Source: Lentisphaerota bacterium
GTDB taxonomy: Bacteria; Verrucomicrobiota; Kiritimatiellia; UBA8416; VGWI01
Assembly: GCA_016873655.1 (NCBI GenBank)
Contig: VGWI01000003.1
Location: forward strand, 1,737 to 65,736
Direction of reading: 5' to 3'
DNA length: 64,000 bases
Shown here piece after piece: positions 7,046 to 48,082 of the stretch. How positions within the stretch are numbered: position 1 is the first letter of the stretch; each line of letters begins with the position of its first letter. The notes under the pieces were generated by a model, which was not told the origin of the DNA, did no database searches, and saw only the letters and a list, made by a program, of their open reading frames with translations. Position numbers and translations under genes: made by a program.

Positions 7046-8788
7046 CTATATCCCGCGCACTTCCGACACCGTTCCATCAAACATCTCGGCCACACGCTTC
7101 ACGGCCGGATCGCGCGCCCATTCCTGGGGGGTCTTCTTCGATTCCCGCGCGCCTTCCGACGGTCGCTTCCCATCATCCGCCCGGGCGCCGCCGGCTTCAC
7201 CGCACGCTGCCTCGATCTCGGCCTCGTCCTTGAGCACGAAAGAAAGCTTCACGCACCGGCCCAGGACATCAGAAATCGCCTTCTCGAGAGCAAGACGGTT
7301 GCGGGGCACATCAAACCGCGCCGGTTCCTCGGCGAACTCGCGGTCGAAACCTATCGTCACCGTGTCGCCGGAGACGGAAATCGGGGCGGCATCCGCGAGA
7401 GCGTTCCGCAAGGATACCGCACACATCGCCGCCGCCGCGGCGACATCGCCCCACCGCTGCCGCAGAAGACGGCATTCCCGTTCACCAGTCCCGGCCGCCG
7501 CCGCCTCGGCGCTCGGCTCCAGCCCGGTCGGCGCGGCGCCGGCCATCGGCAGTTCGGGCTCGCGCACCGCCTGCGGGCGGGACGGAGAAGACGCGAACCG
7601 GACCGGCGCAGCCGACTGCGGCGCGGTTCCTTCACCAGCCCCGCCGAGTTCCTCGCGCAACGCCTGGACCTTCGCGAGCACTTCATCGAGCGAAACCGAT
7701 CTCGCCGCCCGCGCTGAGCGGATCAGCGCCATCTCGAGCATCGTGCGTCTGGACAGGGCCGTCCGCATGCCCTCCTCCGCCTCTGAAAGGATTTCGGCGA
7801 CACGCACTATGCGGGCGGGCGAAACTTCGCCCGATTGCTCCATCAGGGCTTCGCGGTCCTCGGCCATGATGCCCAGCTCCGCCGTGTCGCCCTCGATGTA
7901 ACGGCAAACAAGCAGGTCGCGGAAGCAGCCGAGCAGTTCGATCAGCAGCCGCTGCATGTCCTTGCCGGCCTCATCCATGTCCTTCACGGTCCGGATCAGG
8001 CCCGGTATGTCGCCGGAAAGCACCTGGCCGGCAAGGCCCGTCACCACGCGGCGGGAGACAAGCCCGAAAACCGAAAGAACGTCCTGCTCCTCTATCTTCC
8101 GGCCGCAGAACGAAACAAGCTGGTCAAGCGCCGATTCCGCGTCACGCAAACCGCCCTCGGCTCCACGCGCAACAGCCAGCAGGGCGTCAGACGTAACCTC
8201 AAAACCTTCCTTGTCCGCGATCAGCTTCAGTCGCTCCACGATCAGGGGCAGCGAAATGCGCCGAAGGTCAAACCTCTGGCACCGCGAGAGTATCGTCGCC
8301 GGCACCTTGTCCGCCTCGGTGGTCGCAAAGATGAACTTCACGTGCCTCGGAGGCTCTTCAATGGTCTTGAGCAGGGCGTTGAAGGCACCCATGCTGAGCA
8401 TGTGCACCTCGTCTATGACGTAGATCCGGTAAGGGCCGCGCGCAGGAGCGTACTTGACGGCGTCGCGAAGATCGCGCACCTGGTCCACGCCGTTGTTTGA
8501 GGCACCGTCTATCTCCTGCACGTCAAGACTCCTGCCTTCCATGATCTCGATGCAGGAGTCGCACTTGTCGCAGGGCTTGTGACCCTTCCTCTTGCCGCAA
8601 TTGAGCGTCTTGGCAAAGATGCGGGCGAGTGACGTCTTTCCCGTGCCGCGCGGGCCCACGAACAGGTATGCGTGGGCAAGCCGGTCCGCGTCGATGGCGT
8701 TGCGAAGCGTGCGGGTGACGTGCTCCTGCCCGACGACATCGTCGAACTGCTGCGGACGCCACTTCCGCGCTATCACTTCGTAGGCCAT
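7046..8788 (-). CDS. dnaX: DNA polymerase III subunit gamma/tau
   Basis: AAA+ motifs (GPRGTGKTS, DEVHML, SRC) and a Zn module CDKCDSC. True start is probably the ATG at 8788 (MAYEVIARKWRP), two codons inside the GTG of the listed ORF. Confidence 0.9.
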   Translation of the reverse strand: MAYEVIARKWRPQQFDDVVGQEHVTRTLRNAIDADRLAHAYLFVGPRGTGKTSLARIFAKTLNCGKRKGHKPCDKCDSCIEIMEGRSLDVQEIDGASNNGVDQVRDLRDAVKYAPARGPYRIYVIDEVHMLSMGAFNALLKTIEEPPRHVKFIFATTEADKVPATILSRCQRFDLRRISLPLIVERLKLIADKEGFEVTSDALLAVARGAEGGLRDAESALDQLVSFCGRKIEEQDVLSVFGLVSRRVVTGLAGQVLSGDIPGLIRTVKDMDEAGKDMQRLLIELLGCFRDLLVCRYIEGDTAELGIMAEDREALMEQSGEVSPARIVRVAEILSEAEEGMRTALSRRTMLEMALIRSARAARSVSLDEVLAKVQALREELGGAGEGTAPQSAAPVRFASSPSRPQAVREPELPMAGAAPTGLEPSAEAAAAGTGERECRLLRQRWGDVAAAAAMCAVSLRNALADAAPISVSGDTVTIGFDREFAEEPARFDVPRNRLALEKAISDVLGRCVKLSFVLKDEAEIEAACGEAGGARADDGKRPSEGARESKKTPQEWARDPAVKRVAEMFDGTVSEVRGI

Positions 8789-8955
8789 CGCCACTCACCC
8801 CCCCCCCAGGAAGAACGGCAGGCCCCGCACACGCGCGGCGCGCCGTAACGGCCGGTCAGAACCTTCGTTTAATAGCGGCTGGGCTATCAGGTTGACAAGG
8901 ATTTTGCTTTTGCCCATCCTGCGTCGGCCCAGGGAATTCTTGCCGGTTTTCGATA

Positions 8956-10269
8956 ATGACGCAATCGCACTTGCCAACACCCTCGCCGGAGCCGCGGCGG
9001 GCATGGTTGCCCGGACTCCTTCTGCTTCTTGCCGGAGCCGCGGCCGCGACGTTGATATTCCAGTTCACCGACCTGGATATGCGGCTCCAGAAGCTGTTCC
9101 ACCGCACGGACGGCACCGACCCCTGGCCTTTCGGCGATCGGCCGCCTTGGAACTTCCTCTATCACTACGGAACGATCCCGGCCGTTCTGACCGGCCTGGC
9201 GGCGCTGGTGACGGCGGCGTGGAGCGCTCTGCGCGGCGGACCGCGCCTGCGGCGCATCTACTCAGTCTTCCTCATCCTCTCCCTTCTCATCGGCCCCGTC
9301 ATCGTCGTAAACGGCCTGTTCAAGGATAAGTGGGGCCGGCCGCGCCCGCGGGAAATAACGGAATTCGGCGGCATGCACGCCTTCGTTCCAGCCGTCGTAA
9401 AGGGAACATGGGCCAAGGGCCGGTCGTTCCCGTGCGGACATGCCTCGACGGGCTTCTACCTCGGCGCCTTCTACTTCGTGCTGCGCAACCGGCGCCGCGC
9501 GGCGGCTCGGGCGGCCATGGCAGGTTCCGTCGTCTACGGAACACTCATCGGCATCGCGCGAATGGCGGCAGGAGCGCATTTCGCATCCGATGTGGTCTTC
9601 GCCGCGCTGATGACCTACGGGACAATGTTCGCCGCGTACTGGTGGCTCCTGCGCATCCCGGCACACGAGGCGGGTCCGCCGGTTGTCGAGAAACCCGCGG
9701 CCGCATGGCGCGTGGCCGCCGCCACGCTGGCAGTCGCTGCGCTCGGCGGCGTCGCCGTGCTGCTCGCCACGCCTTTCCGGAAGACCGCAGCCTTCGCCGC
9801 ACCGTCCGCCGGGAGTAATGAGCCGCCCGCGGCAATCACCGTCTCCGCACGGGCAGGCCGCGTCACACTGCTTGCGACCCCGTTGCCCGACCGCCTTTTC
9901 AGGTTCGAGGGGGAAGCGCGCGGGTTCGGCCTTCCGTGGAGCGGCGTGAAAGTGTCGGTCCGCAAGGACACAAGCGGCCCGGGGCGGCGCTACGTGCTTG
10001 ATGTGGAACCGAAGGGCTTGTTCACGGAGTTGGACATGAACCTGTCGCTCGCGGTCGGCGACGGCGTGGGCGCGGTGGAGCTGGACGTGGAGGGCGGCGA
10101 CCTGCTGATCCGGCACGACGGCGGCGGCATTCCTTCGGTGCGCGCCGTTGTCCGGGACGGCAGGATCAACGTTGGTCAGAACCTCCGCCCATACGCGAAA
10201 ACGGTCCTCCTGCCTTCCAGCGAAATGGAATGCGTTTTAGTCCCGCCCGCGAAGGAAACCGGCAAGTGA
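8956..10269 (+). CDS. PAP2-superfamily membrane phosphatase (LpxE/LpxF-like lipid phosphatase) with a C-terminal about 190-aa beta-rich extension
   Basis: PAP2 motifs KDKWGRPRP, PCGHAS, HFASDVV and multiple TM segments, plus a long C-terminal soluble domain. Divergent from the dnaX/LPS operon. Confidence 0.6.
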   Translation: MTQSHLPTPSPEPRRAWLPGLLLLLAGAAAATLIFQFTDLDMRLQKLFHRTDGTDPWPFGDRPPWNFLYHYGTIPAVLTGLAALVTAAWSALRGGPRLRRIYSVFLILSLLIGPVIVVNGLFKDKWGRPRPREITEFGGMHAFVPAVVKGTWAKGRSFPCGHASTGFYLGAFYFVLRNRRRAAARAAMAGSVVYGTLIGIARMAAGAHFASDVVFAALMTYGTMFAAYWWLLRIPAHEAGPPVVEKPAAAWRVAAATLAVAALGGVAVLLATPFRKTAAFAAPSAGSNEPPAAITVSARAGRVTLLATPLPDRLFRFEGEARGFGLPWSGVKVSVRKDTSGPGRRYVLDVEPKGLFTELDMNLSLAVGDGVGAVELDVEGGDLLIRHDGGGIPSVRAVVRDGRINVGQNLRPYAKTVLLPSSEMECVLVPPAKETGK

Positions 10270-34992: not shown

Positions 34993-35182
34993 CATCACTG
35001 TCATCCCGTAGGCAACGTTTCACGATCACAAAACCCCGCGTTTGCTGATGTTTTAGAATAGTCTGCGGGATTGTGATTCTTGAACTGTCCTTCGTAATCC
35101 TGATCGTAATCGTAATCATAGTCCTCTCTTTGGCAGATGATTACGATTACGATCAGGATTACGATTACGCGATGCCTGTGGG
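34993..35182. mobile_element. MITE-like non-autonomous element, copy 2 (about 190 bp) flanked by a 14-bp direct repeat ATGCCGTGAAACGG (34979-34992 and 35183-35196)
   Basis: Same termini (CACTGTCATCCCGTAGG...CCTGTGGG) as copy 1. Internal stem extended to a perfect 26 bp (GTAATCCTGATCGTAATCGTAATCAT / ATGATTACGATTACGATCAGGATTAC) with compensatory changes relative to copy 1. Lies about 200 bp upstream of wzm. Confidence 0.6.
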
Positions 35183-35379
35183 ATGCCGTGAAACGGAATC
35201 AGCCATTGCCCTGCAAGCAAAAAGGGGGACATGCCCCCCGGCGATTCGGGCGCGGCCCGGAATTGGGCTTTCAGACGGAATGGGAAAATGTTTCCATCGC
35301 TCACGCGCTCTTTCCGGCAGGGACCCGGCAAAGACTCAACGGCGCCTTGTTTCGACAATCTTACCGCGGATGTTTCACT

Positions 35380-36243
35380 ATGTGCGAACACAGCCCGCTC
35401 GCCGGAAAAACCGGATGCCCGGAAACAGCGCAGACCGTCTTCGATTCGGCGCACCGCCAGCCGCCGGCAATCGAAGAGCTTGTCCAGCTATGGCGCTACC
35501 GCGACCTCGTGGCGCAGCTCGTCATCCGCAACATCAAGGCCCGCTACAAGCGTTCCGTGCTTGGAGTCGTTTGGACGATGCTGAATCCGCTGCTGATGAT
35601 GGCGGTGCTCTCGCTCGTGCTGCACGGGCTCTTCGGGCTCCGCGTGCCGAACTACTCCGCGTACCTGCTTGCCGGCCTTCTGCTCTGGCAGTTCTTCGCC
35701 CAGGCAACCCTGGCCAGCACAAGCGAGATCGTGTGGGGCGCAAGCCTCGTCAAGCGCATCTACGTGCCGCGGACGGCATTCGCCGTAGCCGCCGTCGGGA
35801 ACGGACTGGTCAACCTGGCTCTCTCGCTTGTCCCGCTTGCGCTGATAATGGCCGTCCTCGGAATCCCGGTCGGCAGAGCGGCGCTGACGATCCCGGTTTC
35901 TGTCCTGCTGACGGCAATGTTCACGCTCGGCGTGGCTCTGTTTGTTTCGTCGGTGGCAGTCTATTTCGCCGACTTCATGGAGATATACCAGGTTGCCCTG
36001 ACAGCGTGGATGTACCTGACACCCGTGATCTATCCGATAGACATCGTCCCGGAACGTTACCGATGGCTTTTCAAGTTGAACCCCATGTGCCACCTCGTCG
36101 ACATCTTCCGCGCGCCGATACACATGAACGCCCTGCCGGCCATGGAGTCCCTCTGCGCCGCTGCCGGCGCCTCCGTGCTGGTCCTGCTGCTTGGCTGGCT
36201 GTTCTTCACACGGAATTCCGATGAAATCGCCTACCGCGCCTGA
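35380..36243 (+). CDS. wzm: ABC-2 type polysaccharide export permease (Wzm/KpsM/TagG family)
   Basis: Six predicted TM helices; conserved N-terminal QLWRYRDLVAQLVIRNIKARYKRSVLGVVW typical of ABC-2 glycan exporters. The listed ORFs start within the MITE and translate the repeat (MITITIRITI...); the real start is ATG 35380. Confidence 0.8.
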   Translation: MCEHSPLAGKTGCPETAQTVFDSAHRQPPAIEELVQLWRYRDLVAQLVIRNIKARYKRSVLGVVWTMLNPLLMMAVLSLVLHGLFGLRVPNYSAYLLAGLLLWQFFAQATLASTSEIVWGASLVKRIYVPRTAFAVAAVGNGLVNLALSLVPLALIMAVLGIPVGRAALTIPVSVLLTAMFTLGVALFVSSVAVYFADFMEIYQVALTAWMYLTPVIYPIDIVPERYRWLFKLNPMCHLVDIFRAPIHMNALPAMESLCAAAGASVLVLLLGWLFFTRNSDEIAYRA

Positions 36244-37006
36244 CAACCGCAACACAACCGAGACAGAGACGCTGAGCCCGGACACGGCGATCAGGATTGA
36301 CCGCGTTACCGTCCGCTACCGCCTCCCGCACGAACGAATCCACACGTTCAAGGAATACGTGATCCGCATGCTGCGCGGACAACTCAGGATGATTGACCAC
36401 CTCGCGCTGCGGGACGTAAGCATGGAAGTCCGCCGGGGCGAGGTCCTCGGAATAGTCGGGCGCAACGGCGCCGGCAAGAGCACGCTGCTGAAACTGGCGG
36501 CGCGGGTGCTCCAGCCGACCGAAGGGCGGATCCGGATAAGGGGCCGTGTGGCGCCGCTGCTGGACGTCGGCGGCGGATTCCATCCCGAGCTGACCGGGCA
36601 CGAAAACATCTTTCTGAACGGCGCGCTGCTGGGACTCTCCCGCGCGGAGATAACCCGCCGCCTCGACAGCATCGTGGAGTTCGCCGAGCTTCGGGACTGC
36701 ATCGAATCGCCCCTGCGCACGTATTCCAGCGGCATGATCGCCCGCCTGGGCTTTGCGATAGCCACGGACGTCGAGCCGGACATCCTGCTGATAGACGAAA
36801 TCCTCGCGGTCGGCGACGAGAAGTTCCGCGCGAAATGCGCCGGACGCATACGGCGCTTTCGCGACGCCGGCACCACCATCGTTCTGGTTTCGCACGATAT
36901 GCACATGGTCCGCGAACTGTGCGGGCGCGCAGTCTGGCTGAACAAGGGCCGCGTCGAGGGCGAGGGCACGGCAGACGAGATCGTGACACTCTACAGCCGC
37001 GCCTGA
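36221..37006 (+). CDS. wzt: Polysaccharide export ABC transporter ATP-binding protein (Wzt/KpsT/TagH family)
   Basis: Walker A GRNGAGKST, signature YSSGMIARLGF, Walker B ILLIDE. No C-terminal carbohydrate-binding domain (about 260 aa). Overlaps wzm by 23 nt. Confidence 0.85.
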   Translation: MKSPTAPDNRNTTETETLSPDTAIRIDRVTVRYRLPHERIHTFKEYVIRMLRGQLRMIDHLALRDVSMEVRRGEVLGIVGRNGAGKSTLLKLAARVLQPTEGRIRIRGRVAPLLDVGGGFHPELTGHENIFLNGALLGLSRAEITRRLDSIVEFAELRDCIESPLRTYSSGMIARLGFAIATDVEPDILLIDEILAVGDEKFRAKCAGRIRRFRDAGTTIVLVSHDMHMVRELCGRAVWLNKGRVEGEGTADEIVTLYSRA

Positions 37007-37075
37007 CCAGGCGTTGCGTTGCGCTGTTCGGCAGCGCAGCCGCCGGGTCCCGCGCACAGGAAACAGGCGTCTTGC

Positions 37076-39964
37076 ATGGACGATGACGGAAACATCGAAT
37101 CGCACTACGACCGGATATGGGACTCCGATCCGGTCCCGCCGTACGTCGAGTCCCTGCTGCCGGCCATGGCCGGGCTGGGCCTGCGCCACTCTTCAACGGT
37201 GCTGGACGTGGGTTGCGGAAACGGTGTGCTGGGCCGGCGGCTGATGGACCTTTACGGCTGCCGGATTTACGGCACGGACATCTCGCCGGTTGCGCTGAAA
37301 GCCGCGTCGGCACGCGGCTACGCCGGCGTCGCAAGGACAAGCGCCGACCCGCTGGCCCGGTTCCGGCAGCCGTTCCCCGGCCAGCGGTTCGACGTTGTGG
37401 TGTTGAGCGCGGTCCTTGAGCACGTCTTCGACCCGGCTGCATTGATTGCAGCGTCCCATTCGGCCTTGAAGCCAGGCGGGTTCATCGTTGTTCTGACGCC
37501 CAACGTCACGTGGTTCCTGAACCGCCTTCTGTTCCTGCTTGGCATGTGGGAACACCCTCTCCTGGGAGGAACGGACGGCCACATACGTTACCTGAACCGG
37601 CGCATGCTGCAGAAGCTGGTGACAGACGCCGGCTTCGGCGGCCTTGACTGGTCATTCTCTTCCATGGCCGCCCTGCCGCCGGGCCAGAACCTGCACGTCC
37701 GCGGCCGCCGCGTCCCGCTCGTCCGCCGCCTCGCGGGACGGCGCGCGCGTGTTCGCCCCTCGCTCTGGGCGGAGAACTTCATCCTTCTCGCGCGGAAACC
37801 GGTATCCGACCCGGACACCTCCCAATGGGCGGACCTGGCCGGCAAGACGGACCTCATGCCGTTGAAGATTCTGCACATCGCCGCAACACCGAACGGAGCC
37901 AACTGGATGTTCGAAATCACGCGCGACTTGCGATCAAGGGGCCACGATGCCGCCGCGCTGATCTCGCCCGGCCAGGGCGATCTTGCGCCCAAGCTCCAGC
38001 GCGCCGGCGTGCCGTATCACGTGTTCGACCTGGACGTCATGAGCGTCAACGACTACGCAGGCATCGTTCGCCGTGTACTGAAGCTTGCCCGGTTCCTCAG
38101 GGAACATCGCTTCGACGTGGTACACTATCACCTCTTCACTTCCGTTATCCTCGGCCGCGTCGCGGCCTACATCGCCGATGTTCCGCTGCGCTTCTCCATG
38201 TGCACGGGGCCGTTCTACCTGGAAGCGCCGGCAACGCGCGAGGTGGACCGCCGCACGTTCTGGATGGACACGAAGGTCATCCCGTCCTGCGAGTTCAGCC
38301 GCAAGCTATACCTGGAGATGGGGCTCCCCGCCAGACGGATGGAACGCATCTTCTACGGCGCTGACCCGTCCGCATTCGATCCGGCCAAGGCTGACGGGGG
38401 CAAACTCAGGCGCGAGTACGGAATCCCGGACAACTCCCCGATCGTCAGCATGGTTGCCTATTTCTACAGCCGCCTCCCGTACGGCAAGTGGACGCCGCCG
38501 CAGCTCCAGGGCCGCGCTGTGAAGGGACACGACACAGTGCTTGAGGCCGCGAAACTCGTTCTGCAACGCAATCCGCGCGCCAGGTTTCTCCTGGTCGGCA
38601 GGGGATGGGAAGCCGGGGGCGAGGAATTCATGCTGGAGATGAAATCGCTGGCGAAGTCGCTGGGCATAGACCATGCAGTGATCTTCACCGGCATGCGGCG
38701 CGACATTCCCGATGTGCTGGCCGGCTCCGATGTCACCATCCAGTCCTCGCGCAGCGAGAACCTCGGCGGAAGCATCGAGGCGCTGTTGATGGCGCGGCCC
38801 ACCGTGGCGTCGGCCGTCGGCGGACTGGTTGATGCCGTTCGCCACGAGGAAACAGGCCTGCTCGTCCCTATGGACGATGCGCCGGCGCTGGCGGCGGCGA
38901 TTCTCCGTCTTCTGGACAACCCTGAATGGGCGGCCACACTGGGGAGAAACGGGCGCGCGTTGATGCTGCGGGACTTCACCCTGTCCAGAACAGTTGACGA
39001 TCTGGATCAACTCTACCGGACGGAGGCGGGAAAGATCATGCAACGCGAACGGCCTTCGGCGCCTGGCCCGGCCGCCCGCCGCTACCGGCCGTCGGTCAGC
39101 CTGCTGCGCCTGATGTGTGTCGCCGTCCGCCTGGGCTTCTTTGCCTTGTGTTTCGATCTGCCGGACATCGCCGCGGGCGCGATGCGCCGGAGAGTGGCAG
39201 GCCTCAAGCGGCCCGCCGCGCGCAACGCCGCCGCGCTGTTCGCGGGGCTGGGCCGGGATCTGATTCACTTGACGCCGCTTCTGCTCCCGGCGGCAGCGAT
39301 CTCCATCTTCCTGACCGGAACGGCGCGCATGGTCTTCCTGGCCGCCCTGTTGTCGTCCGCGCTCTTCGTGCGGCTGAAATACGCCGGCCCGGCCGTCAGC
39401 CTGGTTCGGCTTGCCACAAAGCGCGTTTTCGATCTGCTGATCGTTGCGGTCATCGCCGCGGCCGGCTCGCCGCTGTGGATCGCCGCCGTTGTCGCCGCGA
39501 AACGTCTGCCGGGCCCCGCGCTCGTGCGCTCGCCGAGAATCGGACGATTCGGGATTGTCTTTGACATGTTCACGCTGCGGAGCCGGCTGCCGGACTCCGG
39601 CGCAGCCTTCTTCGCCCGGCTGCTCCGTCGCATCCACGCGTGGAACGCCCCCGCCATCATCAACGTGGCGCGCGGCGAAATGAGCATCGTCGGCCCCCGC
39701 CCGGTTTCACCCGAACCGGCTGCCGGTTCATCCGGAATCCGGCGCAAACCGACAGCCAAGCCCGGCCTGGTTGGCTGGGCTGAAGTCAGGATGCCCGCCG
39801 CTTCGGCAGAGGAAGAGATGCGCCTCGATCTGTGGTACGAGGAACATCAGTCCTTCTGGCTGGACGCATGGACCGTGTTGAAGGCGGCGGCAGGCTGCGT
39901 CATGCGCGGGAGCGCCGCGTCGGCAGCCGACCATTGCGGGCCAGGACGCGAGCCGCCGCAATGA
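37076..39964 (+). CDS. Three-domain fusion: class-I SAM methyltransferase + GT4 (GT-B) glycosyltransferase + degenerate bacterial sugar-transferase (PGT, PF02397-like) membrane domain
   Basis: N-terminal VLDVGCGNGVLG (MT motif I). Middle domain with the GT4 EX7E motif (ENLGGSIEALLMARPTVASAVGGL). C-terminal domain with TM, VFDLLIVAV...SIVGPRP...PGLVGWAEV but lacking the catalytic Asp-Glu dyad (LDELP replaced by HAWNAP) and the KFRTM motif. Confidence 0.75.
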   Translation: MDDDGNIESHYDRIWDSDPVPPYVESLLPAMAGLGLRHSSTVLDVGCGNGVLGRRLMDLYGCRIYGTDISPVALKAASARGYAGVARTSADPLARFRQPFPGQRFDVVVLSAVLEHVFDPAALIAASHSALKPGGFIVVLTPNVTWFLNRLLFLLGMWEHPLLGGTDGHIRYLNRRMLQKLVTDAGFGGLDWSFSSMAALPPGQNLHVRGRRVPLVRRLAGRRARVRPSLWAENFILLARKPVSDPDTSQWADLAGKTDLMPLKILHIAATPNGANWMFEITRDLRSRGHDAAALISPGQGDLAPKLQRAGVPYHVFDLDVMSVNDYAGIVRRVLKLARFLREHRFDVVHYHLFTSVILGRVAAYIADVPLRFSMCTGPFYLEAPATREVDRRTFWMDTKVIPSCEFSRKLYLEMGLPARRMERIFYGADPSAFDPAKADGGKLRREYGIPDNSPIVSMVAYFYSRLPYGKWTPPQLQGRAVKGHDTVLEAAKLVLQRNPRARFLLVGRGWEAGGEEFMLEMKSLAKSLGIDHAVIFTGMRRDIPDVLAGSDVTIQSSRSENLGGSIEALLMARPTVASAVGGLVDAVRHEETGLLVPMDDAPALAAAILRLLDNPEWAATLGRNGRALMLRDFTLSRTVDDLDQLYRTEAGKIMQRERPSAPGPAARRYRPSVSLLRLMCVAVRLGFFALCFDLPDIAAGAMRRRVAGLKRPAARNAAALFAGLGRDLIHLTPLLLPAAAISIFLTGTARMVFLAALLSSALFVRLKYAGPAVSLVRLATKRVFDLLIVAVIAAAGSPLWIAAVVAAKRLPGPALVRSPRIGRFGIVFDMFTLRSRLPDSGAAFFARLLRRIHAWNAPAIINVARGEMSIVGPRPVSPEPAAGSSGIRRKPTAKPGLVGWAEVRMPAASAEEEMRLDLWYEEHQSFWLDAWTVLKAAAGCVMRGSAASAADHCGPGREPPQ

Positions 39965-41633
39965 CGGCGGGCATGAGAAGACACACGTTCGTGAAGGCGT
40001 ACAGCAGGTGCTGTCCCAGCGCCGTGATCAGGCATGGAACCAGATAGAAGAGCCACAACCTTCTGAAGTCTGACGCTTTCGACAAACGGAATGCGGCTGC
40101 AATGAGAGCCGCAAGCGCCACGGCCGCCGGAATCAGCCCGTACTCGAACGCCAGATCGAGGTACGTATTGTGCATGTGTGCGTAGTACAGCTTCGTTTCA
40201 CGTTGCGCATGCTTGTGGAAACGCGCCCAGGTGCCAGCCCCGCCGCCGCGTACGATATACCCGTCCGCGATCTTCCCCGCGCCCAGCGTCCACATATCGG
40301 CCCGCGCCGGCTCGAATCGCGCCAGCCACGGTTTCGCGCGCGCCACAAGACGCGTTGCGCCTGATCTGTCACCGCGCTCCACGGGCTTCCCTGCGAATTC
40401 CACGGCCGACCAGGCCGCCAGCGCGACAAGGCATGCAATCCGGACGCGGCGATAGCGGACCGGACCGCGTCCGGTCAGCGACCCGGACAAACCTTCCGCC
40501 GCGCGCAGAATCAGCCAGGCTGCCGGCAGCACGACCATGACCGCCCCGAGCACAAGCAGGGCTTTCGGGATGAACGTGCCAACAGCCAGCCTTGCCACGG
40601 ACAACACGTTCGGCAGCCCAACCACCGACGCCGTGTCCAGAAACCACAGAGTTGAAAGAACGACACCTGCGGCAAACAACAGGGCCGCCACGCGCCATGG
40701 CCGGGAGACCCGGCGCCGCGTGCCGGCCATGCCGCTCTGCAACCCGGCGCAGCGTGCCGGCCGGCAGAACATAAGCGCGACACCCGCCGCCGCGGCATAG
40801 AAAGCAATCTGGAGAATGAACAGCGCCGGCGGAAGCAAACCGCACAGCCCGGCAAACACACGCCTCGCACGGGTCATCGCGGCGAGAGCAAACCAGGGCA
40901 GCGCAAGCGCAACCAGGAAGGCAAAATAGCTGAGATTGTAACCGGCGCCGTGAAAGAGAAGTCCGGCAAGCCGCGCGTGATTGGTCGTGCCAAGGAAATG
41001 ATGCGGGCCCTGCCACGGCAGCAACGCGCTCCCGAAAGCGGCCAGCATGGCCGTGACTCCCGCCGCAAACGCGGCGGCCCAGATCCGCCGCGACGAGAAG
41101 AAGGCCGGGAAACACACGACACCGGCGCAGATTGCCGCCGCAAGCGAACGCTGGACACACTGACGCAAAGGGAAGACGTACCAGCTTGCCCGGGCCGAAA
41201 GGAAATGCCCCACGGCCTCACGCGGCGGCCGGCCGAGAATATCCAGGCACAGTGCGCCCCCTTCCCTCGGCCAGGAAAGGAACAGCACGGCCGCTGCCGC
41301 CAGCGCAACCGGAAACAGCGCCTTGGGGTTGCGTCTGCCGGCTGCAAGAAGCCGCAACAGCAGAACCAGCGCCACAAGCTCCTGCCACCATGCCCTGTCG
41401 CTGCCCGAATCGCACATGAAGGCCGGGCACGTCATCACCAGCAGAGGCAGGCATGTGGCCGGACGGACGAGGACCATGCCGCAAAGAAGCCATCCCAGCG
41501 CAATCCACTCGAGCGGCCCGCTCCGGAACGGCAACACGATCTGGCCGAAGAGAAGAAGCAATACCCATCCGCCGAGGACAACCCTGTCCGCCGTTCCTCC
41601 CCGAACACGAGTCCATCCCGCCACCAGGTTCAC
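39900..41633 (-). CDS. Wzy_C-domain polytopic membrane protein (O-antigen ligase WaaL / O-oligosaccharyltransferase PglL family)
   Basis: 577 aa with more than 10 TM segments. Conserved Wzy_C motif region AHMHNTYLDLAFEYGLIPAAVALAAL (compare H-x-H-N-x-Y-L of WaaL/PglL). Last gene of the pglC-pglD-pglE-pglF-like operon. Confidence 0.7.
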   Translation of the reverse strand: MNLVAGWTRVRGGTADRVVLGGWVLLLLFGQIVLPFRSGPLEWIALGWLLCGMVLVRPATCLPLLVMTCPAFMCDSGSDRAWWQELVALVLLLRLLAAGRRNPKALFPVALAAAAVLFLSWPREGGALCLDILGRPPREAVGHFLSARASWYVFPLRQCVQRSLAAAICAGVVCFPAFFSSRRIWAAAFAAGVTAMLAAFGSALLPWQGPHHFLGTTNHARLAGLLFHGAGYNLSYFAFLVALALPWFALAAMTRARRVFAGLCGLLPPALFILQIAFYAAAAGVALMFCRPARCAGLQSGMAGTRRRVSRPWRVAALLFAAGVVLSTLWFLDTASVVGLPNVLSVARLAVGTFIPKALLVLGAVMVVLPAAWLILRAAEGLSGSLTGRGPVRYRRVRIACLVALAAWSAVEFAGKPVERGDRSGATRLVARAKPWLARFEPARADMWTLGAGKIADGYIVRGGGAGTWARFHKHAQRETKLYYAHMHNTYLDLAFEYGLIPAAVALAALIAAAFRLSKASDFRRLWLFYLVPCLITALGQHLLYAFTNVCLLMPAVIAAARVLARNGRLPTRRSRA

Positions 41634-43546
41634 AGCACCGGCACATTCTGCTGCACGGCGTACTCCGGCAGTATCTCGACCAGTTTCCGCCTGATTCCGG
41701 CGGCGTCGTGGCGGCCGGCAATCTCAGCCAGTTCTTCTATCGCGCCCATCAACAGTCCCGAATCCGGCTGAGAACCGGCTTCGCGCTTCAGGACAAGAAT
41801 GCCCTTGTGCGAGGTCGGGGCAACTCCTTCCCCTTCGGTGATGAGTTCCTCGTGAAGCTTCTCGCCCGGCCGCAGGCCCGTGAAGACGATGCTCCCTTCC
41901 CTGTCCGGATCCATGCCGGACAGGCGGAGCAGGTCGCGCGCCATGGCGGCAATCCGCACCGGCTGCCCCATGTCCAGCACAAATGTCTCCCCGCCGGTCC
42001 CGAGCCCGCCAGCCTGCAGGATGAGCCGGGCCGCCTCGGGTATCGACATGAAGTACCTCGTCACTTCCGGATGCGTGACCGTGACCGGCCCGCCGCTCCG
42101 GATCTGCTCCCTGAAGATGGGGACAACCGAACCGGACGACCCGACCACGTTCCCGAAACGCACGGCCATGAAGACCGTGCCGTTCCCCGCCATGGCATGC
42201 ATCGCCAGTTCGGCCACGCGCTTTGAGGCGCCCATCACGTTCGTCGGTCTTACCGCCTTGTCGGTGGAAACCAGAACGAACCTTGCGGCCCCGTGCTTCG
42301 TCGCCGCTCGCATGGTCGCGCAACTTCCGAGGATGTTGTTGGTGACGGCCTCCCATGGGTTCGCTTCGAGCATCGGCACGTGCTTGTAGGCGGCGGCATG
42401 GAATACGACCGAGGGCTTGTAGCGCTCGAAGACCCGTTCCATCAGGCATTCATCGGCCACACTGCCGAGGATGGCCACGTGGCGCGGGAACCGCAGCCGG
42501 GTCTTGAGCTGCAGCTCCATCGCAAACAGGTTCGCCTCCGAGGAGTCGAGCAACACCAGCAAGCCTGGCCGGAACTCTATGATCTGCCTGCACAACTCGG
42601 AACCGATGGACCCGCCGCAGCCCGTGACCAGGACCGATTTCCCTTCGATGTAGCCGCGGATGCTTTCCACGTCCAGTTGCGCCGGTTCGCGGCCAAGGAG
42701 GTCCTCATAGTCCACATCGCGCAGATCCTTAAGGCCCGCCTTTCCTCCGATGAGTTCACCGATGCCGGGCACGATCTTCAGCTCGACGCGCCGGCCTTCG
42801 CAGTCCTGTACGATTCTCCGCATGGTCGCGGCGGAAACCCCGCTGATGGTCACCAGCACCTTCCTGACGCCGTGCCGGTCTATGCAGCGGCCGAGGGCGT
42901 CAACCGTGCCAATGACGGGAATGCCGTGAACCGAGCGCCCCCGCTTGCCCGGGTCATCGTCCACAAACCCCACCACCGAGCACGCCAGTTTCGGATTCTC
43001 CTGTATCTCCTGCAGTATCCGCTCCCCGGCAATGCCGGCGCCCACTATCATGGTCCGTACACCGGAACGGAATTGCCCGCGCCAGTTCAGAACCCGCGGC
43101 AGCGCCATCGCCTGGAGCCCGCTTCGATGCAGGAACACTCCCCGTATGCCTGTTCGCAGCGCACCGGTGAGAAGAAACGATATCAGGCCGTCCAGGACGA
43201 ACACGCCGCGCGACAGTCCGCTTGTCCCCTGGAACCACGCCAGCGTGAGGACAACGGCCAGCGACGCCACCGTCAGGGCCTGAAACAGACGGACAATGTC
43301 CTTGAGCCCCGTGTAGCGCCACATTCCGCGGTACAACCCGAACGCCGACAGGCACAGCGCTTTCACGGGCAACACGAGGCACAGCAACGGCGCTATCTGC
43401 CGGCGATAGTATGCCGGTATCGCAAAGTCGAAGCGTATCGCGTAGGCCAGCAACATCGACAACGCCATCAGCAAGGCGTCGGCGGCCAGCATGAGGTACA
43501 GCTTCGGGTTCCCGAACCGCGCGGCCATCGTCCTCATCGCCGTCAT
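41630..43546 (-). CDS. Membrane-bound UDP-GlcNAc 4,6-dehydratase (CapD/PglF/WbpM family)
   Basis: 638 aa: four N-terminal TM helices, two Rossmann regions (IVGAGIAGE..., VLVTGCGGSIGSEL) and the SDR catalytic YKHV...K. Confidence 0.85.
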   Translation of the reverse strand: MTAMRTMAARFGNPKLYLMLAADALLMALSMLLAYAIRFDFAIPAYYRRQIAPLLCLVLPVKALCLSAFGLYRGMWRYTGLKDIVRLFQALTVASLAVVLTLAWFQGTSGLSRGVFVLDGLISFLLTGALRTGIRGVFLHRSGLQAMALPRVLNWRGQFRSGVRTMIVGAGIAGERILQEIQENPKLACSVVGFVDDDPGKRGRSVHGIPVIGTVDALGRCIDRHGVRKVLVTISGVSAATMRRIVQDCEGRRVELKIVPGIGELIGGKAGLKDLRDVDYEDLLGREPAQLDVESIRGYIEGKSVLVTGCGGSIGSELCRQIIEFRPGLLVLLDSSEANLFAMELQLKTRLRFPRHVAILGSVADECLMERVFERYKPSVVFHAAAYKHVPMLEANPWEAVTNNILGSCATMRAATKHGAARFVLVSTDKAVRPTNVMGASKRVAELAMHAMAGNGTVFMAVRFGNVVGSSGSVVPIFREQIRSGGPVTVTHPEVTRYFMSIPEAARLILQAGGLGTGGETFVLDMGQPVRIAAMARDLLRLSGMDPDREGSIVFTGLRPGEKLHEELITEGEGVAPTSHKGILVLKREAGSQPDSGLLMGAIEELAEIAGRHDAAGIRRKLVEILPEYAVQQNVPVL

Positions 43547-44679
43547 CCGACTTCCATCGCGCGCCGAACAGCGCCTATGACGCGATCCTGATCCGCGTCA
43601 GTCATGCCCGTTCCCGAGGGCAGGCAAAGGCCCAGCCTGAACAGCCGCTCGCTCACCGAACCGCCGTACATCCTGCAACCGGCGAACACCGGCTGCATGT
43701 GCATCGGTTTCCATACGGGGCGCGCCTCGATGTCTTCCTTCTCGAGCGCCAGCCGCACGGCTTCCCGGTCCACCGACGCAACCGCGGGCTCTATCAGGAT
43801 CACCGTCAACCACCGGTTCGACCGCCCCCACGCCGCCTCGGGCATGAACGTCACGCCGGCGAGGCCTGAAAGGGCCTCAACGTAGCGGTCAAATATCTCT
43901 CTCTTCCGCCTGACGCGCTGGTCGAGAACACGCAACTGGCCGCGGCCGATTGCGGCAACAATGTTGCTCATCCGGTAGTTGTAGCCGATTTCAGCGTGCT
44001 CATAGTGCGGGTAGTTCTCGCGCGCCTGCTGCGAGAGCTTGCGCGCGTGCGCGATCAACTTCCCGTCTTCGGACGCGAGAAGTCCTCCGCCGGACGTGGT
44101 GATGATTTTGTTCCCGTTGAAGGAAAAGACCGCCATTTTGGCGCCGTTGCCTGCATGCCTGCCCCGGGACTCCGCGCCCATAGCCTCGGCGGCATCGGCT
44201 ATGACGGGTATGCCATGCGGCAGGCACGTTTCCGTCAGGCGCTCGTAGTCCGCGCACTGACCGTACAGATCGGTGGGAATCACCGCCCTGGGCCTGATCC
44301 CGGCGCGGATGCAGTCATCCACCACTTCAGCCAGCAGTCCAGGATCCATCGTCCAGCTTCCCTCGTCGGCATCAACAAAGACGGGCGTCGCGCCCTGAAA
44401 GACGGCAGGACTTACGCTGCCGATGAACGTGAGGGATGACGCGATCACGGTGTCGCCGGCCTGCACGCCGAGAACGCGGAGGGCAAGATGCATCGCAGCT
44501 GTCCCGCTGTTCACGGCCAGGCAGTGCGGCAGGCCCACGCGTTCCGCAAACTCCTTCTCGAACGCGTCAACCATCGGGCCCAGCGGCGCGATGTAGTTCG
44601 AGGCGAACGCTTCGCGCACCAGGTCCAGTTCCTGCCCGGACATGTGGGGCGGGGAAAGAAAGAGCCGTCCTGCGCTCAA
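43543..44679 (-). CDS. DegT/DnrJ/EryC1/StrS-family PLP-dependent sugar aminotransferase (PglE-like)
   Basis: 378 aa; ...FSFNGNKIITTSGGG... PLP-lysine region and overall DegT architecture. Confidence 0.85.
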   Translation of the reverse strand: MSAGRLFLSPPHMSGQELDLVREAFASNYIAPLGPMVDAFEKEFAERVGLPHCLAVNSGTAAMHLALRVLGVQAGDTVIASSLTFIGSVSPAVFQGATPVFVDADEGSWTMDPGLLAEVVDDCIRAGIRPRAVIPTDLYGQCADYERLTETCLPHGIPVIADAAEAMGAESRGRHAGNGAKMAVFSFNGNKIITTSGGGLLASEDGKLIAHARKLSQQARENYPHYEHAEIGYNYRMSNIVAAIGRGQLRVLDQRVRRKREIFDRYVEALSGLAGVTFMPEAAWGRSNRWLTVILIEPAVASVDREAVRLALEKEDIEARPVWKPMHMQPVFAGCRMYGGSVSERLFRLGLCLPSGTGMTDADQDRVIGAVRRAMEVG

Positions 44680-45083
44680 GAGCCGTTTCCCTTCCTCTTC
44701 ACTATTCTGGCCGGAACCCCGAAGGCAACGCAGTCGGCCGGGATGTCACTGTTGACGAAACTCATCGCCCCGATGACGGCATTCTCGCCAACCGTCACAC
44801 CGGGCATGATGACGCTGTGCGCCCCGATCCGGCAATTTCTCTTCAGAACAACGGGCCCATGCTTGTCGTCTATCGTGGAAACGGAGTAGATGGAACAGTG
44901 CGACCCTATCTGTACGTCGTCTTCAATGGCCACGCCGTGTTTTGCGTTGATGTAGGTGAAGGCGCCAATGTCGGTCCGGGTCCCCATCTGGAGCCCGTTC
45001 TTGTGCTGCACCAGCCAGTTGTACCTGGTGAGCTTGCCGTCCTCGATCACCGGCTTCTCCCATCGCTCGAATCGCTGTTCCAT
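44676..45083 (-). CDS. Left-handed beta-helix (hexapeptide-repeat) sugar N-acetyltransferase (PglD/WbbJ-like)
   Basis: Hexapeptide repeats (IGSHCSIYSV, IGAHSVIMPGVTVGENAVIGAMSFV). ATG 45083 overlaps the pglC-like stop (TGATG). Confidence 0.7.
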   Translation of the reverse strand: MEQRFERWEKPVIEDGKLTRYNWLVQHKNGLQMGTRTDIGAFTYINAKHGVAIEDDVQIGSHCSIYSVSTIDDKHGPVVLKRNCRIGAHSVIMPGVTVGENAVIGAMSFVNSDIPADCVAFGVPARIVKRKGNGS

Positions 45084-45724
45084 CACTGCTTCCCCGTTTG
45101 AGAACCGCCGGTTCCAGTGAACCGGGGCATTGTCGCACAGCCTTTCGCCACTATGCCGACGCCGGACAACACGCGCCAGACGGTCATGCACAGAATCCTC
45201 GCATCCAGCAGGAGCGAATGGTGATCAACATACCAGACATCAAGACGGAAACGTTCTTCCCAGTCCAGCGCGTTCCGCCCGTTTACCTGCGCCCATCCCG
45301 TCAGGCCCGGCCTGACCTCGTGCCTCCGCGCCTGTTCGGCCGAGTAGAGCGGCAGGTATTCCATGAGCAGCGGACGCGGCCCCACAAGACTCATGTCGCC
45401 CCTGAGCACGTTCACGACCTCCGGCAACTCGTCAAGGCTCGTCGCCCGCATGAAGCGGCCAAACCCGGTCATGCGCTCCGCGTCGGACACAGCCCCCTTC
45501 TCGCCGCCAGCGTCCGTCATGGTCCTGAACTTGTAAAGCGTGAACGGCCTTCCGGCCAGTCCCGCTCTGGTCTGCTTGAACAACGCCGGACGCCCAAGCA
45601 TGGCCCAGACCAGCGCCGCAAGCGCCAGCCCCAGCGGCCAGAACAGAAGAATGATGATCGCGGCGGCAAGCACGTCCACGGCGCGCTTGAGCCGTCCGCC
45701 GTATCTTCCGCACGCACGCTTCAT
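45083..45724 (-). CDS. Undecaprenyl-phosphate sugar phosphotransferase (small monotopic PGT, PglC/WcaJ C-terminal type) with intact catalytic dyad
   Basis: 213 aa: re-entrant helix LAAAIIILLFWPLGLALAALVW, KFRTM, SLDELPEVVNVLRGDMSLVGPRP, PGLTGWAQV. Confidence 0.85.
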   Translation of the reverse strand: MKRACGRYGGRLKRAVDVLAAAIIILLFWPLGLALAALVWAMLGRPALFKQTRAGLAGRPFTLYKFRTMTDAGGEKGAVSDAERMTGFGRFMRATSLDELPEVVNVLRGDMSLVGPRPLLMEYLPLYSAEQARRHEVRPGLTGWAQVNGRNALDWEERFRLDVWYVDHHSLLLDARILCMTVWRVLSGVGIVAKGCATMPRFTGTGGSQTGKQ

Positions 45725-45928
45725 TGCCCCTGCCTCCCCGCCAACGCTGACCGATCATATTGGAACACGCGCCCCCGCGTACACCACGCAATCACTTTCC
45801 TGAACGGCAGAACACCCGGAACAGCAGGACCGCCCGGCCGGGCAGGGAGCCGGTTGCATTGCGGGGCGTCAACGTGTATGTTGCGCGCCGATTCACGCGA
45901 AGTTGTGCCGGCAGGGAGATTCACCGCG

Positions 45929-46375
45929 ATGGAACAGACCGCAGTGCAGGCAATGAAAGCCAGGCGCCTGAGACCGGATGCGCGCCTCCCGGAATACGCG
46001 CACCCTGGCGACGCCGGCATGGACCTCTTTGCCGCCGAGAGGCTCGACCTTGCCCCCGGCGAACGCCGTCTGGCCCGGACCGGCGTGGCGATAGAACTGC
46101 CGCGGGGCACGGAGGGACAGGTGCGCCCGCGCAGCGGGCTCGCACTGAAGCACGGGGTGACCGTCCTTAACGCGCCCGGAACGATTGACGAGGGATACCG
46201 CGGCGAGGTGGGCGTGATTCTCGTGAACCACGGCGGCGAGCCCTACACCGTGGAACCGGGCATGAAGATCGCGCAGCTCGTGGTTCAGCCCGTCCTGCGC
46301 GTGCAGGTGCAGGAAACATCGGACCTGTCCGACACCAGCCGCGGCGCTGGCGGGTTCGGCTCAACTGGATATTGA
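45929..46375 (+). CDS. dut: dUTP diphosphatase
   Basis: 148 aa; dUTPase motifs AGMDL, RSGLALKHGV, GTIDEGYRGEV, and a C-terminal RGAGGFGSTG motif V. Confidence 0.85.
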   Translation: MEQTAVQAMKARRLRPDARLPEYAHPGDAGMDLFAAERLDLAPGERRLARTGVAIELPRGTEGQVRPRSGLALKHGVTVLNAPGTIDEGYRGEVGVILVNHGGEPYTVEPGMKIAQLVVQPVLRVQVQETSDLSDTSRGAGGFGSTGY

Positions 46376-46389
46376 AGAGGAGCCTCGAC

Positions 46390-47403
46390 GTGGCCGACAA
46401 CGAGTACGGCAGTATACTTGCTGGCGAGTCGCAGACGGTCCGCGATTCCTGGAACCGGTTCCGGAGTCACCCAGTGGACTGGGAATGGCTCGCGCCGGAA
46501 CCCGCATGGCCCGCCAACGAAACGACGCTTGCACGCCCTTTCCAGGTCACCGGGCCGGGCACCTTCTTCGGCGAAGCGCAGCGCACGCTCCACTTCGAGC
46601 CGTCCGAGCGACGCGGCTGGTGGTTCGACCGCACAACGAGACCGGAATCCATGCCGATCCACGTGTCGGCTGACAACGTGTGGACCACGGTCCGCAACAT
46701 CGTCCTATGCAGCGGCTCGCCGCACAACTACATGCGCATGGTTGAACACATCATCGCATTGAGGACCGGCCTGAGACTGGACAACGTGTTGATCCGCGTG
46801 GACTCCGGCGACCCGCCCCTCTTCGACCGGAGCAGCATGGACATGGTCGAGGGCGTCGACGCCGCCGGAGTGGCCGAGACAGCCACGCCCGCATCCTACT
46901 GCACTGTGAAGGAGCCCGTTACTGTCGGCGGCAGGAACGGCAGCTTCCTCACCTTCCTTCCGGCCGAAGAAGGGTCCCGTTCGCTCACCATCGACTGCGC
47001 AATAGACTTCCCGTCCGCGATAGGGAAACAGAGGATCAGGTTCAACGTGACCCCGGAGACTTTTCGTTACGGCGCCCAGGCCAGGACGAACACGACAATG
47101 TGGATGATGCTCTACTCCTGGAGCATCGGGAAGATATTCGCCGACACCCGCAACCTCGGCTACACGCTGCGCAACATCCTCGTCGCCGGTCCACGCCGCT
47201 ACGTCAACAAACCGCGGCTCCACCACAACGGCAAATCGCTGGAAGCCGCATGGCACCGCGCCACGCTGGATCTGCTCGCGGTAATCGCGATGATCAACAA
47301 GGGTCGGTTCGTGGGCAGGGCACTGTCCTACAAATCCGGCCATGAGCTCGACGTGCGGATGATCCGCGAGCTTTACGAACGCGACCTGCTGCGGCCTGTC
47401 TGA
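46390..47403 (+). CDS. lpxC: UDP-3-O-acyl-N-acetylglucosamine deacetylase (LpxC family)
   Basis: LpxC zinc/catalytic residues conserved: ...MVEH (His79 equivalent), HRATLD (His238/Asp242 equivalent), YKSGHELD (His265 region). GTG 46390 preceded by GAGGAG; a TTG at 46372 overlaps the dut stop. Confidence 0.75.
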   Translation: MADNEYGSILAGESQTVRDSWNRFRSHPVDWEWLAPEPAWPANETTLARPFQVTGPGTFFGEAQRTLHFEPSERRGWWFDRTTRPESMPIHVSADNVWTTVRNIVLCSGSPHNYMRMVEHIIALRTGLRLDNVLIRVDSGDPPLFDRSSMDMVEGVDAAGVAETATPASYCTVKEPVTVGGRNGSFLTFLPAEEGSRSLTIDCAIDFPSAIGKQRIRFNVTPETFRYGAQARTNTTMWMMLYSWSIGKIFADTRNLGYTLRNILVAGPRRYVNKPRLHHNGKSLEAAWHRATLDLLAVIAMINKGRFVGRALSYKSGHELDVRMIRELYERDLLRPV

Positions 47404-47446: not shown

Positions 47447-48082
47447 ATGGATGTGCTTCTGGATATCAAGAACGCGCTGATGCAGGGCAAGGCAAACGAC
47501 GTCAAGACGCTTGTTCAGAAGGCGCTGGACGCAGGAATTCAGCCGGGCGACGTCCTCGGCAAGGGCATGCTAGCCGGCATGAGCGTTATCGGCGAGAAGT
47601 TCAAGAAGAACGAAGTCTACGTCCCGGAAGTCCTCATCGCCGCGCGCGCCATGAAGGAGGGCATGAAGATCCTCCAGCCGAAGCTCGTTGACGCCGGCGT
47701 CGAACCGATCGGCGTGGCAGTGATCGGCACGGTCAAGGGCGACCTGCACGATATCGGCAAGAACCTTGTCGGCATGATGCTCGAAGGCGCGGGCCTGAAG
47801 GTCGTTGACCTGGGCATCGACGTGGACCCCGCGAAGTTCGTGGCCGGCGCACGCGACAACAGGGCTGGTGTCATCGGCGTGTCCGCGCTGCTGACGACCA
47901 CGATGACGAACATGAAGGCGGTCGTGGATGCGCTGAAGGCGTCCGATATCGCCGGCAAGACGAAGGTGATGATCGGCGGTGCGCCGGTTACTCAGGCCTT
48001 TTCCGACGAAATCGGCGCCGACGGCTACGCCCCCGACGCGGCATCAGCCGCCGACCTTGCCCGGAAACTGATCGGCAAGTGA
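47447..48082 (+). CDS. Cobalamin-binding corrinoid protein (B12-binding_2 cap + B12-binding Rossmann domain; MtbC/MtaC-like)
   Basis: N-terminal helical cap MDVLLDIKNALMQGKANDVKTLVQKALDAG. DxHxxG motif DLHDIGKN, SxL (GVSALL) and GG (IGGAPV). Confidence 0.75.
   Translation: MDVLLDIKNALMQGKANDVKTLVQKALDAGIQPGDVLGKGMLAGMSVIGEKFKKNEVYVPEVLIAARAMKEGMKILQPKLVDAGVEPIGVAVIGTVKGDLHDIGKNLVGMMLEGAGLKVVDLGIDVDPAKFVAGARDNRAGVIGVSALLTTTMTNMKAVVDALKASDIAGKTKVMIGGAPVTQAFSDEIGADGYAPDAASAADLARKLIGK

Follow-up and report, generated by a model that had tools for sequence, protein, structure and literature searches.

A Putative ABC-Transporter-Dependent Glycoconjugate Assembly Module with a Divergent WaaL-Fold Ligase Candidate in a Lentisphaerota Bacterium

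Here we examined a 64,000-nucleotide stretch of contig VGWI01000003.1 from a Lentisphaerota bacterium (GenBank assembly GCA_016873655.1), hereafter the window, with emphasis on a polytopic protein of 577 amino acids (aa) encoded at 39900..41633 (minus strand), which we propose, from homology at the level of its family, to be the terminal ligase of a glycan pathway and a member of a clade of the Wzy_C/WaaL superfamily. Our findings favor a model where the region at 35.1-45.7 kb is a self-contained glycoconjugate assembly module, dependent on an ATP-binding cassette (ABC) transporter and completed by this WaaL-fold ligase, with lipid A-core as the most likely acceptor; taken as a whole, we give the model about an even chance.

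A Divergent Clade of the Wzy_C/WaaL Superfamily

The protein is 100% identical to FJ224_01415, a "hypothetical protein" from a Lentisphaerae bacterium metagenome-assembled genome (MAG). Searched alone, it matches no family in Pfam (E≤0.01) or NCBIfam and no sequence in the PDB; at Pfam E≤1 nothing appears except a spurious Flp_Fap, and the gathering score of Wzy_C (PF04932; 31.7 bits) is not reached. An earlier note on this DNA had called it a Wzy_C protein, a call that its own Pfam score does not bear out but that is recovered through its relatives, the family profile and the conserved catalytic loop. A word-indexed search of 5.8e9 proteins returned only 9 relatives, and its repetition with the family alignment added no further members; an exhaustive profile search of 1.84e9 representatives gave 37 clusters at E<1e-10. 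Past this clade the score falls from 68 to 42 bits, with generic Wzy_C proteins below the step, and the profile reaches these at E 6e-6 to 1e-3 (1.84e9 sequences). Nine of ten outlying proteins checked are above the gathering score of PF04932, found alone or in company with Wzy_C_2, TPR or Glyphos_transf. Within the family, Wzy_C is the sole or best Pfam match in 13 of the 18 members scanned, three of them exceeding the gathering score: P0007 (41.8 bits) and P0008 (41.7 bits), with 38-39% identity to the window protein over 95% of the length, and the member from a locus denoted L009 (37.8 bits). Residues R444, G463, G465, G467, H488, D493, E497 and G499 show no variation among 30 family sequences and sit on a loop that combines an Arg, a Gly-rich turn and a His-Asn...Glu-x-Gly element (R...GxGxG...HN...E.G). 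The same loop holds residues that are essential in Escherichia coli WaaL (R288, H338) and conserved in Neisseria meningitidis PglL (R298, H349) (PMC3643930), and hhalign sets the conserved residues of the family on the segment RLKIW...GVGVG...HAHN of Cupriavidus metallidurans WaaL. Judged from these alignments, membership of the protein in the Wzy_C/WaaL superfamily holds at the family level, and the family would constitute a discrete, newly recognized and unannotated clade, so far attributed only to MAGs of Lentisphaerota and Verrucomicrobiota.

Inserts of 200-250 aa occur in roughly 1/5 of the full-length members (P0009, P0016, P0019, P0024, and P0026; 763-830 aa). They fall N-terminal to the catalytic loop, where conservation is poor, at residues ~355-420 of the window protein, and have no Pfam match; parts of the P0009 insert resemble, by eye, a lamin-tail-like beta domain.

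Fold and Topology of the 577-aa Protein

An AF2 model built from 8 sequences was poor (predicted local distance difference test, pLDDT, 63), and the model used here was built from 30. It displays a WaaL/SEDS-like membrane fold, and its best fold match is WaaL, not a polymerase. The model contains ~16 helices of membrane-spanning length, 13 of them N-terminal to the catalytic loop; the final one ends at residue 565 of 577 and leaves 12 residues to the C-terminus. Taken together with the positive-inside rule, these helices suggest a topology of ~16 transmembrane (TM) segments with both termini cytoplasmic; the conserved loops would then be periplasmic, at residues 68-81, 121-153, 205-233 (PW..PH.FLGTTN / HGAGYN) and, for the catalytic one, 415-489. 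A cysteine pair, C69/C74 (DNA ~41410-41429, minus strand), in the motif LTCPAFMC(E/D), is kept in the 8 closest members and stands out in the 30-sequence consensus; the pair may form a disulfide or a metal site, and neither WaaL nor PglL is known to us to have its like. No other protein encoded in the window exceeds four predicted TM segments, and no candidate for Wzx, Wzy or a second ligase is present in the window; the flanking sequence (~3.5 kb at one end, ~2.4-5 kb at the other) holds housekeeping genes only and no ligase candidate.

The Primer-Sugar Operon

The gene of the 577-aa protein closes a run of five minus-strand open reading frames (ORFs; 45724..45083, 45083..44676, 44679..43543, 43546..41630, and 41633..39900) in which all four junctions (TGATG, TTGA, ATGA, and GTGA) overlap by 1 or 4 nt, an arrangement compatible with translational coupling. 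The five coupled genes of the earlier note are thereby confirmed in their coordinates, as is its claim that the Wzy_C-type gene is co-operonic with genes of sugar synthesis. The first gene (45083..45724, minus strand) encodes a small monotopic phosphoglycosyl transferase (PGT) of 213 aa, PglC-like (Bac_transf, 3.1e-61), that matches Campylobacter PglC 8g1n over its whole length (E 2.1e-58) and keeps the DE dyad (SLDELP) and GPRP, in agreement with the intact dyad noted before. The aminotransferase of the third gene (43543..44679, minus strand), read before as DegT, is a pyridoxal phosphate-dependent sugar 4-aminotransferase of 378 aa, PglE/LegC-like, with DegT_DnrJ_EryC1 (PF01041) at 4.9e-92; against the LegC family TIGR04181 it reaches 341 bits, under the cut-off of 420. 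Its closest solved relative is 1o61 (E 9.4e-93; next distinct enzyme, 5.5e-70), which we take to be Campylobacter jejuni PglE, the structure entry itself saying "aminotransferase" only. Homology to 1o61 is present from residue 5 onward, in favor of the TTG start of this gene. The fourth gene (41630..43546, minus strand) encodes a membrane-anchored UDP-N-acetylhexosamine (HexNAc) 4,6-dehydratase of 638 aa with PglF/WbpM/CapD architecture (Polysacc_synt_2, 4.3e-110; CoA_binding_3, 1.2e-17; three or more N-terminal TM segments), the membrane CapD/PglF enzyme that had been recognized there.

The second gene (44676..45083, minus strand) is of a different standing. It encodes a hexapeptide-repeat acyltransferase of 135 aa (Hexapep, 5e-14), presumably a 4-N-acetyltransferase, that had been described as a hexapeptide acetyltransferase and labeled pglD-like; the first part of this description stands, the protein being a left-handed beta-helix (LbH), yet it is not of PglD type. 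Of the NeuD/PglB/VioB model TIGR03570, only the C-terminal half (positions 114-202) is matched; Pfam and NCBIfam scans find no PglD_N domain in it, and PglD is absent among its 46 solved-structure matches, the best of which are WxcM-like and LacA/Maa-type. A homolog of equal size occupies the same position in two related loci (L003 and L005), and in a third (L011) a genuine PglD, with PglD_N, adjoins DegT; this DegT-adjacent position of the true PglD suggests that the short acyltransferase functionally replaces PglD, "pglD-like" being a guess at function and not a family assignment. Thus, homology supports a PglC/PglE/PglF-type cassette for a 2,4-diamino-2,4,6-trideoxyhexose (diNAcBac-like) primer, and of the complete diNAcBac enzyme set proposed earlier these three types are retained, but not a PglD-type acetyltransferase. 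The stereochemistry of the sugar (C4 gluco or galacto) and the N-acetylation step are ones that we infer.

The Convergent Exporter and Fusion Genes

Three plus-strand genes converge on the operon. The first encodes a Wzm-type ABC-2 permease (35137..36243; ABC2_membrane, 6.4e-20) that matches the galactan export permease Wzm/RfbD at 1.3e-23, under the curated cut-off; the second, a Wzt-type exporter ATPase of 271 aa (36191..37006; ABC_tran, 2.4e-21), for which TagH (4e-62) and galactan Wzt/RfbE (2.7e-59) are the best NCBIfam matches, both under curated cut-offs. Alignments of its nucleotide-binding domain reach residue 269 of 271, and the protein is without a C-terminal carbohydrate-binding domain. 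The third gene (37019..39964), a 981-codon ORF for which the database gene call is 962 aa (P0078; probable ATG at 37076), encodes a fusion of a methyltransferase (MT), a family 4 glycosyltransferase (GT4) and a degenerate PGT (Methyltransf_23, 4.6e-25; Glyco_trans_1_4, 2.5e-26; Bac_transf, 7.2e-26, residues 801-957). An ABC exporter and an MT-GT4 fusion had been reported for this island, and both are present; the third, Bac_transf, domain had been missed. It (~39420-39964) is 35% identical to the active PGT, with LDELP turned into AWNAP and KFRTM degraded. Among homologs of the domain, none of the four MT-GT4-PGT proteins has an intact dyad, and SLDELP is kept in two GT4-PGT proteins; the domain resembles a pseudo-enzyme conserved in lineages whose active PglC-like PGT is a protein of its own, and we regard such a domain on an extender enzyme as a new feature. 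The 3' ends of the convergent ligase and fusion genes overlap by 65 nt (39900-39964), as they also do in independent gene calls (contig L001).

Related Loci and the Question of a Polymerase

Scans of genomes and metagenomes gave only 5 loci, of which two were redundant or too short; the context statistics given here cover 7 loci, namely the window, L003, L005, L006, L009, L010, and L011. The closest in content, L003 (58% identity), holds a PGT, the 135-aa acyltransferase, DegT, PglF and the family protein, followed by convergent GT4, Wzt and Wzm genes; its GT4 is a plain 453-aa protein, the remainder of the module being as in the window. Elsewhere the gene content is more varied: GT4, PGT, acyltransferase, DegT, family protein, family 2 glycosyltransferase (GT2) and a B12-radical S-adenosylmethionine (SAM) protein in L005 (Verrucomicrobiota, 39%); GT2, MT, two GT4, epimerase, PGT, PglF and family protein, with no DegT or acyltransferase, in L006/L008 (Verrucomicrobiota); GT4, a 446-aa weak Wzy_C protein, GT4, PGT, a 433-aa paralog, a 2-TM protein and the family protein in L009 (Lentisphaerota); three GT4, epimerase, PGT, UDP-N-acetylglucosamine (GlcNAc) 2-epimerase, family protein, GT2 and B12-radical SAM in L010; and, in L011, GT4s, MT and the family protein, then the true PglD, DegT and PglF. 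In 6 of the 7 loci a small PGT lies at most four genes upstream of the family gene (0-3 intervening), the sugar-tailoring genes being variable; this conserved coupling of the family to PglC-type initiation is, we believe, new.

The loci differ in how the glycan would be exported. In the window and L003 the family protein is accompanied by an ABC exporter, one GT4 and no other polytopic protein; L005, L006, L009, L010, and L011 have no ABC exporter and one or two unrelated polytopic proteins of 410-450 aa with 7-11 TM segments. The latter are possibly Wzy/Wzx-like, by topology alone apart from weak Wzy_C matches in L009, and 2-TM proteins in L006 and L009 have a Wzz-like topology by hydropathy alone, with no Pfam support. 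In L009 the two polytopic paralogs (446 aa, 4607-5947, with the weak Wzy_C match; 433 aa, 7735-9036) are 33% identical, so that three ligase/polymerase-like proteins stand in one cluster. Being common to ABC and non-ABC assembly routes, the family protein is expected to act after export and, on this genomic reasoning, to be a terminal en bloc transferase rather than a polymerase. Wzy-type repeat-unit polymerases are themselves polytopic, very divergent, of the GT-C(B) fold class and often weak matches to Wzy_C, and the family gene sits, as theirs would, inside glycan clusters; WzyE has been treated as a member of the GT-C(B) superfamily (PMC10030265). Yet export in the window and L003 is by Wzm/Wzt, with no Wzx- or Wzz-like protein among the window ORFs or the L003 genes, and a Wzy is not needed next to an ABC exporter because the ABC-dependent pathway polymerizes in the cytoplasm; the non-ABC loci already hold other Wzy-like polytopic proteins; and the full ligase loop is invariant in a protein whose nearest fold is that of WaaL. 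On this pathway logic we rejected a polymerase role, which we hold to be very improbable.

Lipid A-Core, Protein, or Another Acceptor

For the acceptor, we favor lipid A-core and a WaaL-like role with middling confidence. The gene content shows the organism to make lipopolysaccharide (LPS), since LpxC, KdsA, KdsB, LptA, LptB, and LptE are all encoded in the window. A dut gene (dUTPase; 45929-46375, plus strand; identified by eye from its translation) and an lpxC gene that overlaps it (46372-47403, plus strand; LpxC, 6.5e-37) diverge from the PGT operon, whose PGT start is ~200 bp away, and share with it an intergenic region (45725..45928) that presumably holds the promoters. The earlier note had placed the Wzy_C gene far from the lipid A/core genes, which is wrong; with lpxC adjoining the operon, the argument from distance for protein glycosylation fails. 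Besides this adjacency and the LPS genes, two further points support a WaaL-like role: the ABC-type loci of the window and L003 would otherwise be without a ligase to complete an LPS pathway, and features specific to PglL are absent from the family.

The last point bears on the main alternative, in which the 577-aa protein is a protein O-oligosaccharyltransferase (O-OTase), comparable to PglL, PglS, TfpO or Geobacillus WsaB, that moves the exported, bacillosamine-primed glycan to Ser/Thr residues in proteins of the periplasm or the surface. O-OTases have the superfamily, fold and catalytic residues of this protein as well, and by these features they cannot be separated from WaaL (PMC3643930). 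The gene is moreover co-operonic with a diNAcBac-type cassette, diNAcBac being the reducing-end sugar of Neisseria and Campylobacter protein glycans; the clade stands apart from ordinary Wzy_C proteins, and its extra TM helices and periplasmic loops could form another acceptor site; L009 has WaaL-sized Wzy_C-like paralogs in addition; and the Geobacillus S-layer cluster follows the same logic of Wzm/Wzt, MT-GT fusion, PGT and Wzy_C OTase. The specific signs of an O-OTase are nonetheless missing. The PglL_A model (PF15864), made by Schulz et al. to tell PglL from WaaL (PMC3643930), has no match in 8 family members at E≤1, nor in 8 more at E≤0.01, and the family helix that matches H400/E404/P406 of N. 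meningitidis PglL reads ALGQHLLYAFT, with neither Glu nor Pro where PglL has them. Enzymes of the PilO/TfpO type likewise lack the PglL motifs. Wzy_C_2 (PF11846), which the outgroup protein P0044 does carry, is absent from the Pfam results for the window protein and for 15 relatives, and the C-terminal periplasmic domain of PglL and PglS (PMC12800693) has no equivalent in a protein whose last helix nearly reaches its end. An acceptor-protein gene (pilin or similar) adjoins 21 of 31 PglL loci (PMC3643930); in none of our 7 loci does a pilin-like or other evident acceptor gene adjoin the family gene. A profile comparison of WaaL with PglL, proposed in the earlier note as a check, leans the same way: in hhalign, the alignment of the family profile spans 59 columns at the WaaL catalytic loop (probability 67%, E 5e-5) and, for the PglL-like OTase 9rmk, the HN helix only (probability 5%, E 8e-3), a preference that is weak evidence because the templates (246 and 522 aa) are partial, rebuilt from HMMER alignment print-outs. 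The pull toward protein O-glycosylation in that note thus finds no specific support, and we regard an O-OTase as unlikely, if well short of negligible.

Several observations weigh against the WaaL-like role itself. No sequence method places the family within the characterized WaaL enzymes, and an 8-sequence family profile finds no PDB chain at E≤10, neither WaaL nor PglL; the fold comparison does not separate the two either, as the fold libraries returned no PglL structure. The protein has ~16 TM segments in 577 aa, against 12 in ~400 aa for WaaL, so that a typical WaaL architecture is not found, and its conserved periplasmic loops, with C69/C74, are family specific. Its gene is not within a core-oligosaccharide cluster; in L009 one of the two WaaL-sized paralogs (446 and 433 aa) is possibly the true WaaL there; and the search for a second ligase covered the window and short flanks only.

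Some of these features have also led us to consider another acceptor (another lipid, peptidoglycan or an outer-membrane anchor) or a non-catalytic scaffold. The four extra TM helices, the Cys pair and loops 121-153 and 205-233 are without a known counterpart in WaaL or PglL, some family members carry the 200-250-aa insert, and fusions to the teichoic-acid-type Glyphos_transf and to TPR domains indicate that the range of acceptors in the superfamily is broad. No positive evidence speaks for any particular alternative, however, and the strict conservation of the catalytic residues argues against a scaffold; we consider this group of explanations improbable, and more so than an O-OTase. A bolder proposal, which we also think unlikely, is that the clade is a new O-OTase class, or a ligase with a non-LPS acceptor, whose extra helices and loops (CxxxxC, FLGTTN, HGAGYN) form a new acceptor site; PglC-primed glycans, from ABC or Wzy routes, would in this doubtful case go to envelope proteins of Lentisphaerota and Verrucomicrobiota. 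To our knowledge, no general protein O-glycosylation system has been described in these phyla, and a literature search found nothing of relevance on O-antigen ligases of the Planctomycetes-Verrucomicrobia-Chlamydiae (PVC) group.

Other features of the surroundings may be recorded. Immediately 3' of lpxC lies a gene for a 211-aa corrinoid protein (B12-binding plus B12-binding_2; 47447-48082, plus strand), and the B12-radical SAM genes of L005 and L010 stand 3' of the family gene, with the one GT2 gene between. Horizontal acquisition of the 35-46 kb region was considered: its GC of 0.59-0.68, in a window of ~64% G+C that ranges over ~0.59-0.69 (typically 0.61-0.67), gives no clear signal, and there is only a small dip at wzm.

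Proposed Pathway

With lipid A-core as the preferred acceptor, the module could operate as follows. In the cytoplasm, the PglF-like enzyme would dehydrate UDP-GlcNAc and the PglE-like enzyme aminate C4; the short LbH acyltransferase would presumably N-acetylate the product to UDP-2,4-diacetamido-2,4,6-trideoxyhexose (diNAcBac-like), the probable substrate that the PglC-like PGT would load onto undecaprenyl phosphate to give the undecaprenyl pyrophosphate (Und-PP)-linked sugar. The GT4 domain of the fusion would extend the glycan, which its MT domain probably methylates; because the Wzt is without a cap-reading domain, this methylation may be a decoration rather than an export signal. More speculatively, the dyad-less PGT domain probably tethers the fusion at the membrane, near the lipid-linked acceptor. 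Export of the Und-PP-glycan would fall to Wzm/Wzt, and in the periplasm the 577-aa protein would move it en bloc from Und-PP to the acceptor; if it works as WaaL does, R444 and the Gly-rich turn (G463-G467) would bind the pyrophosphate and H488 would serve as catalytic base. If the acceptor is lipid A-core, as seems most likely, the 577-aa protein would be an O-antigen ligase.

In that event, at least some Lentisphaerota and Verrucomicrobiota have a ligase so divergent that standard annotation leaves it a "hypothetical protein", and genome surveys that score O-antigen capacity by Wzy_C/WaaL models would miss the family; if it is a protein O-OTase, a new OTase class would be at hand. The constant pairing with PglC-type initiation suggests a ligase tuned to 6-deoxy-HexNAc/bacillosamine reducing ends, which could help glycoengineering. 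With primer synthesis, one extender, exporter and ligase in eight genes (35137-45724), the module is compact and would be tractable for heterologous reconstitution.

Comparison with Known Systems

Four kinds of known system come closest to the module. WaaL of C. metallidurans (PDB 7TPG/7TPJ) and E. coli is the nearest in fold, yet identity to the 577-aa protein is 16% and no sequence-level match is obtained even with the family profile; the gene is co-operonic with primer-sugar genes instead of core-oligosaccharide genes, and a lipid A-core acceptor is here a proposed likeness. With PglL, PglS and TfpO (PilO) the protein shares superfamily and catalytic Arg/His residues, an Und-PP donor and, in Neisseria, a diNAcBac primer, but it differs by the lack of PglL_A, Wzy_C_2, a C-terminal periplasmic domain and a neighboring pilin gene. 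The likeness to the PglC-D-E-F pathway of Campylobacter and Neisseria lies in the PglC-type PGT, the PglE-like aminotransferase and the PglF architecture, the four genes being here contiguous and overlapping; in contrast, there is no PglB N-OTase, PglK flippase or PglA/H/I/J/L set, export is assigned to Wzm/Wzt, and the 135-aa acetyltransferase, of LbH type, lacks the N-terminal domain of PglD. In overall logic, parallels are E. coli O8/O9a with WbdD and Geobacillus stearothermophilus with WsaE/WsaB, which likewise combine Wzm/Wzt, an MT with an extending glycosyltransferase and a last transfer of Wzy_C type. The O8/O9a Wzt, however, has a C-terminal carbohydrate-binding domain that reads the cap, unlike the Wzt found here; initiation in the present module would be by a small PglC-type PGT, not WecA, and extension by a single GT4 domain; and we know of no description of a dyad-less PGT domain on the fusion for either the O8/O9a or the Geobacillus system. 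Overall, the pathway logic is already known, and what is gained is annotation rather than a new kind of system.

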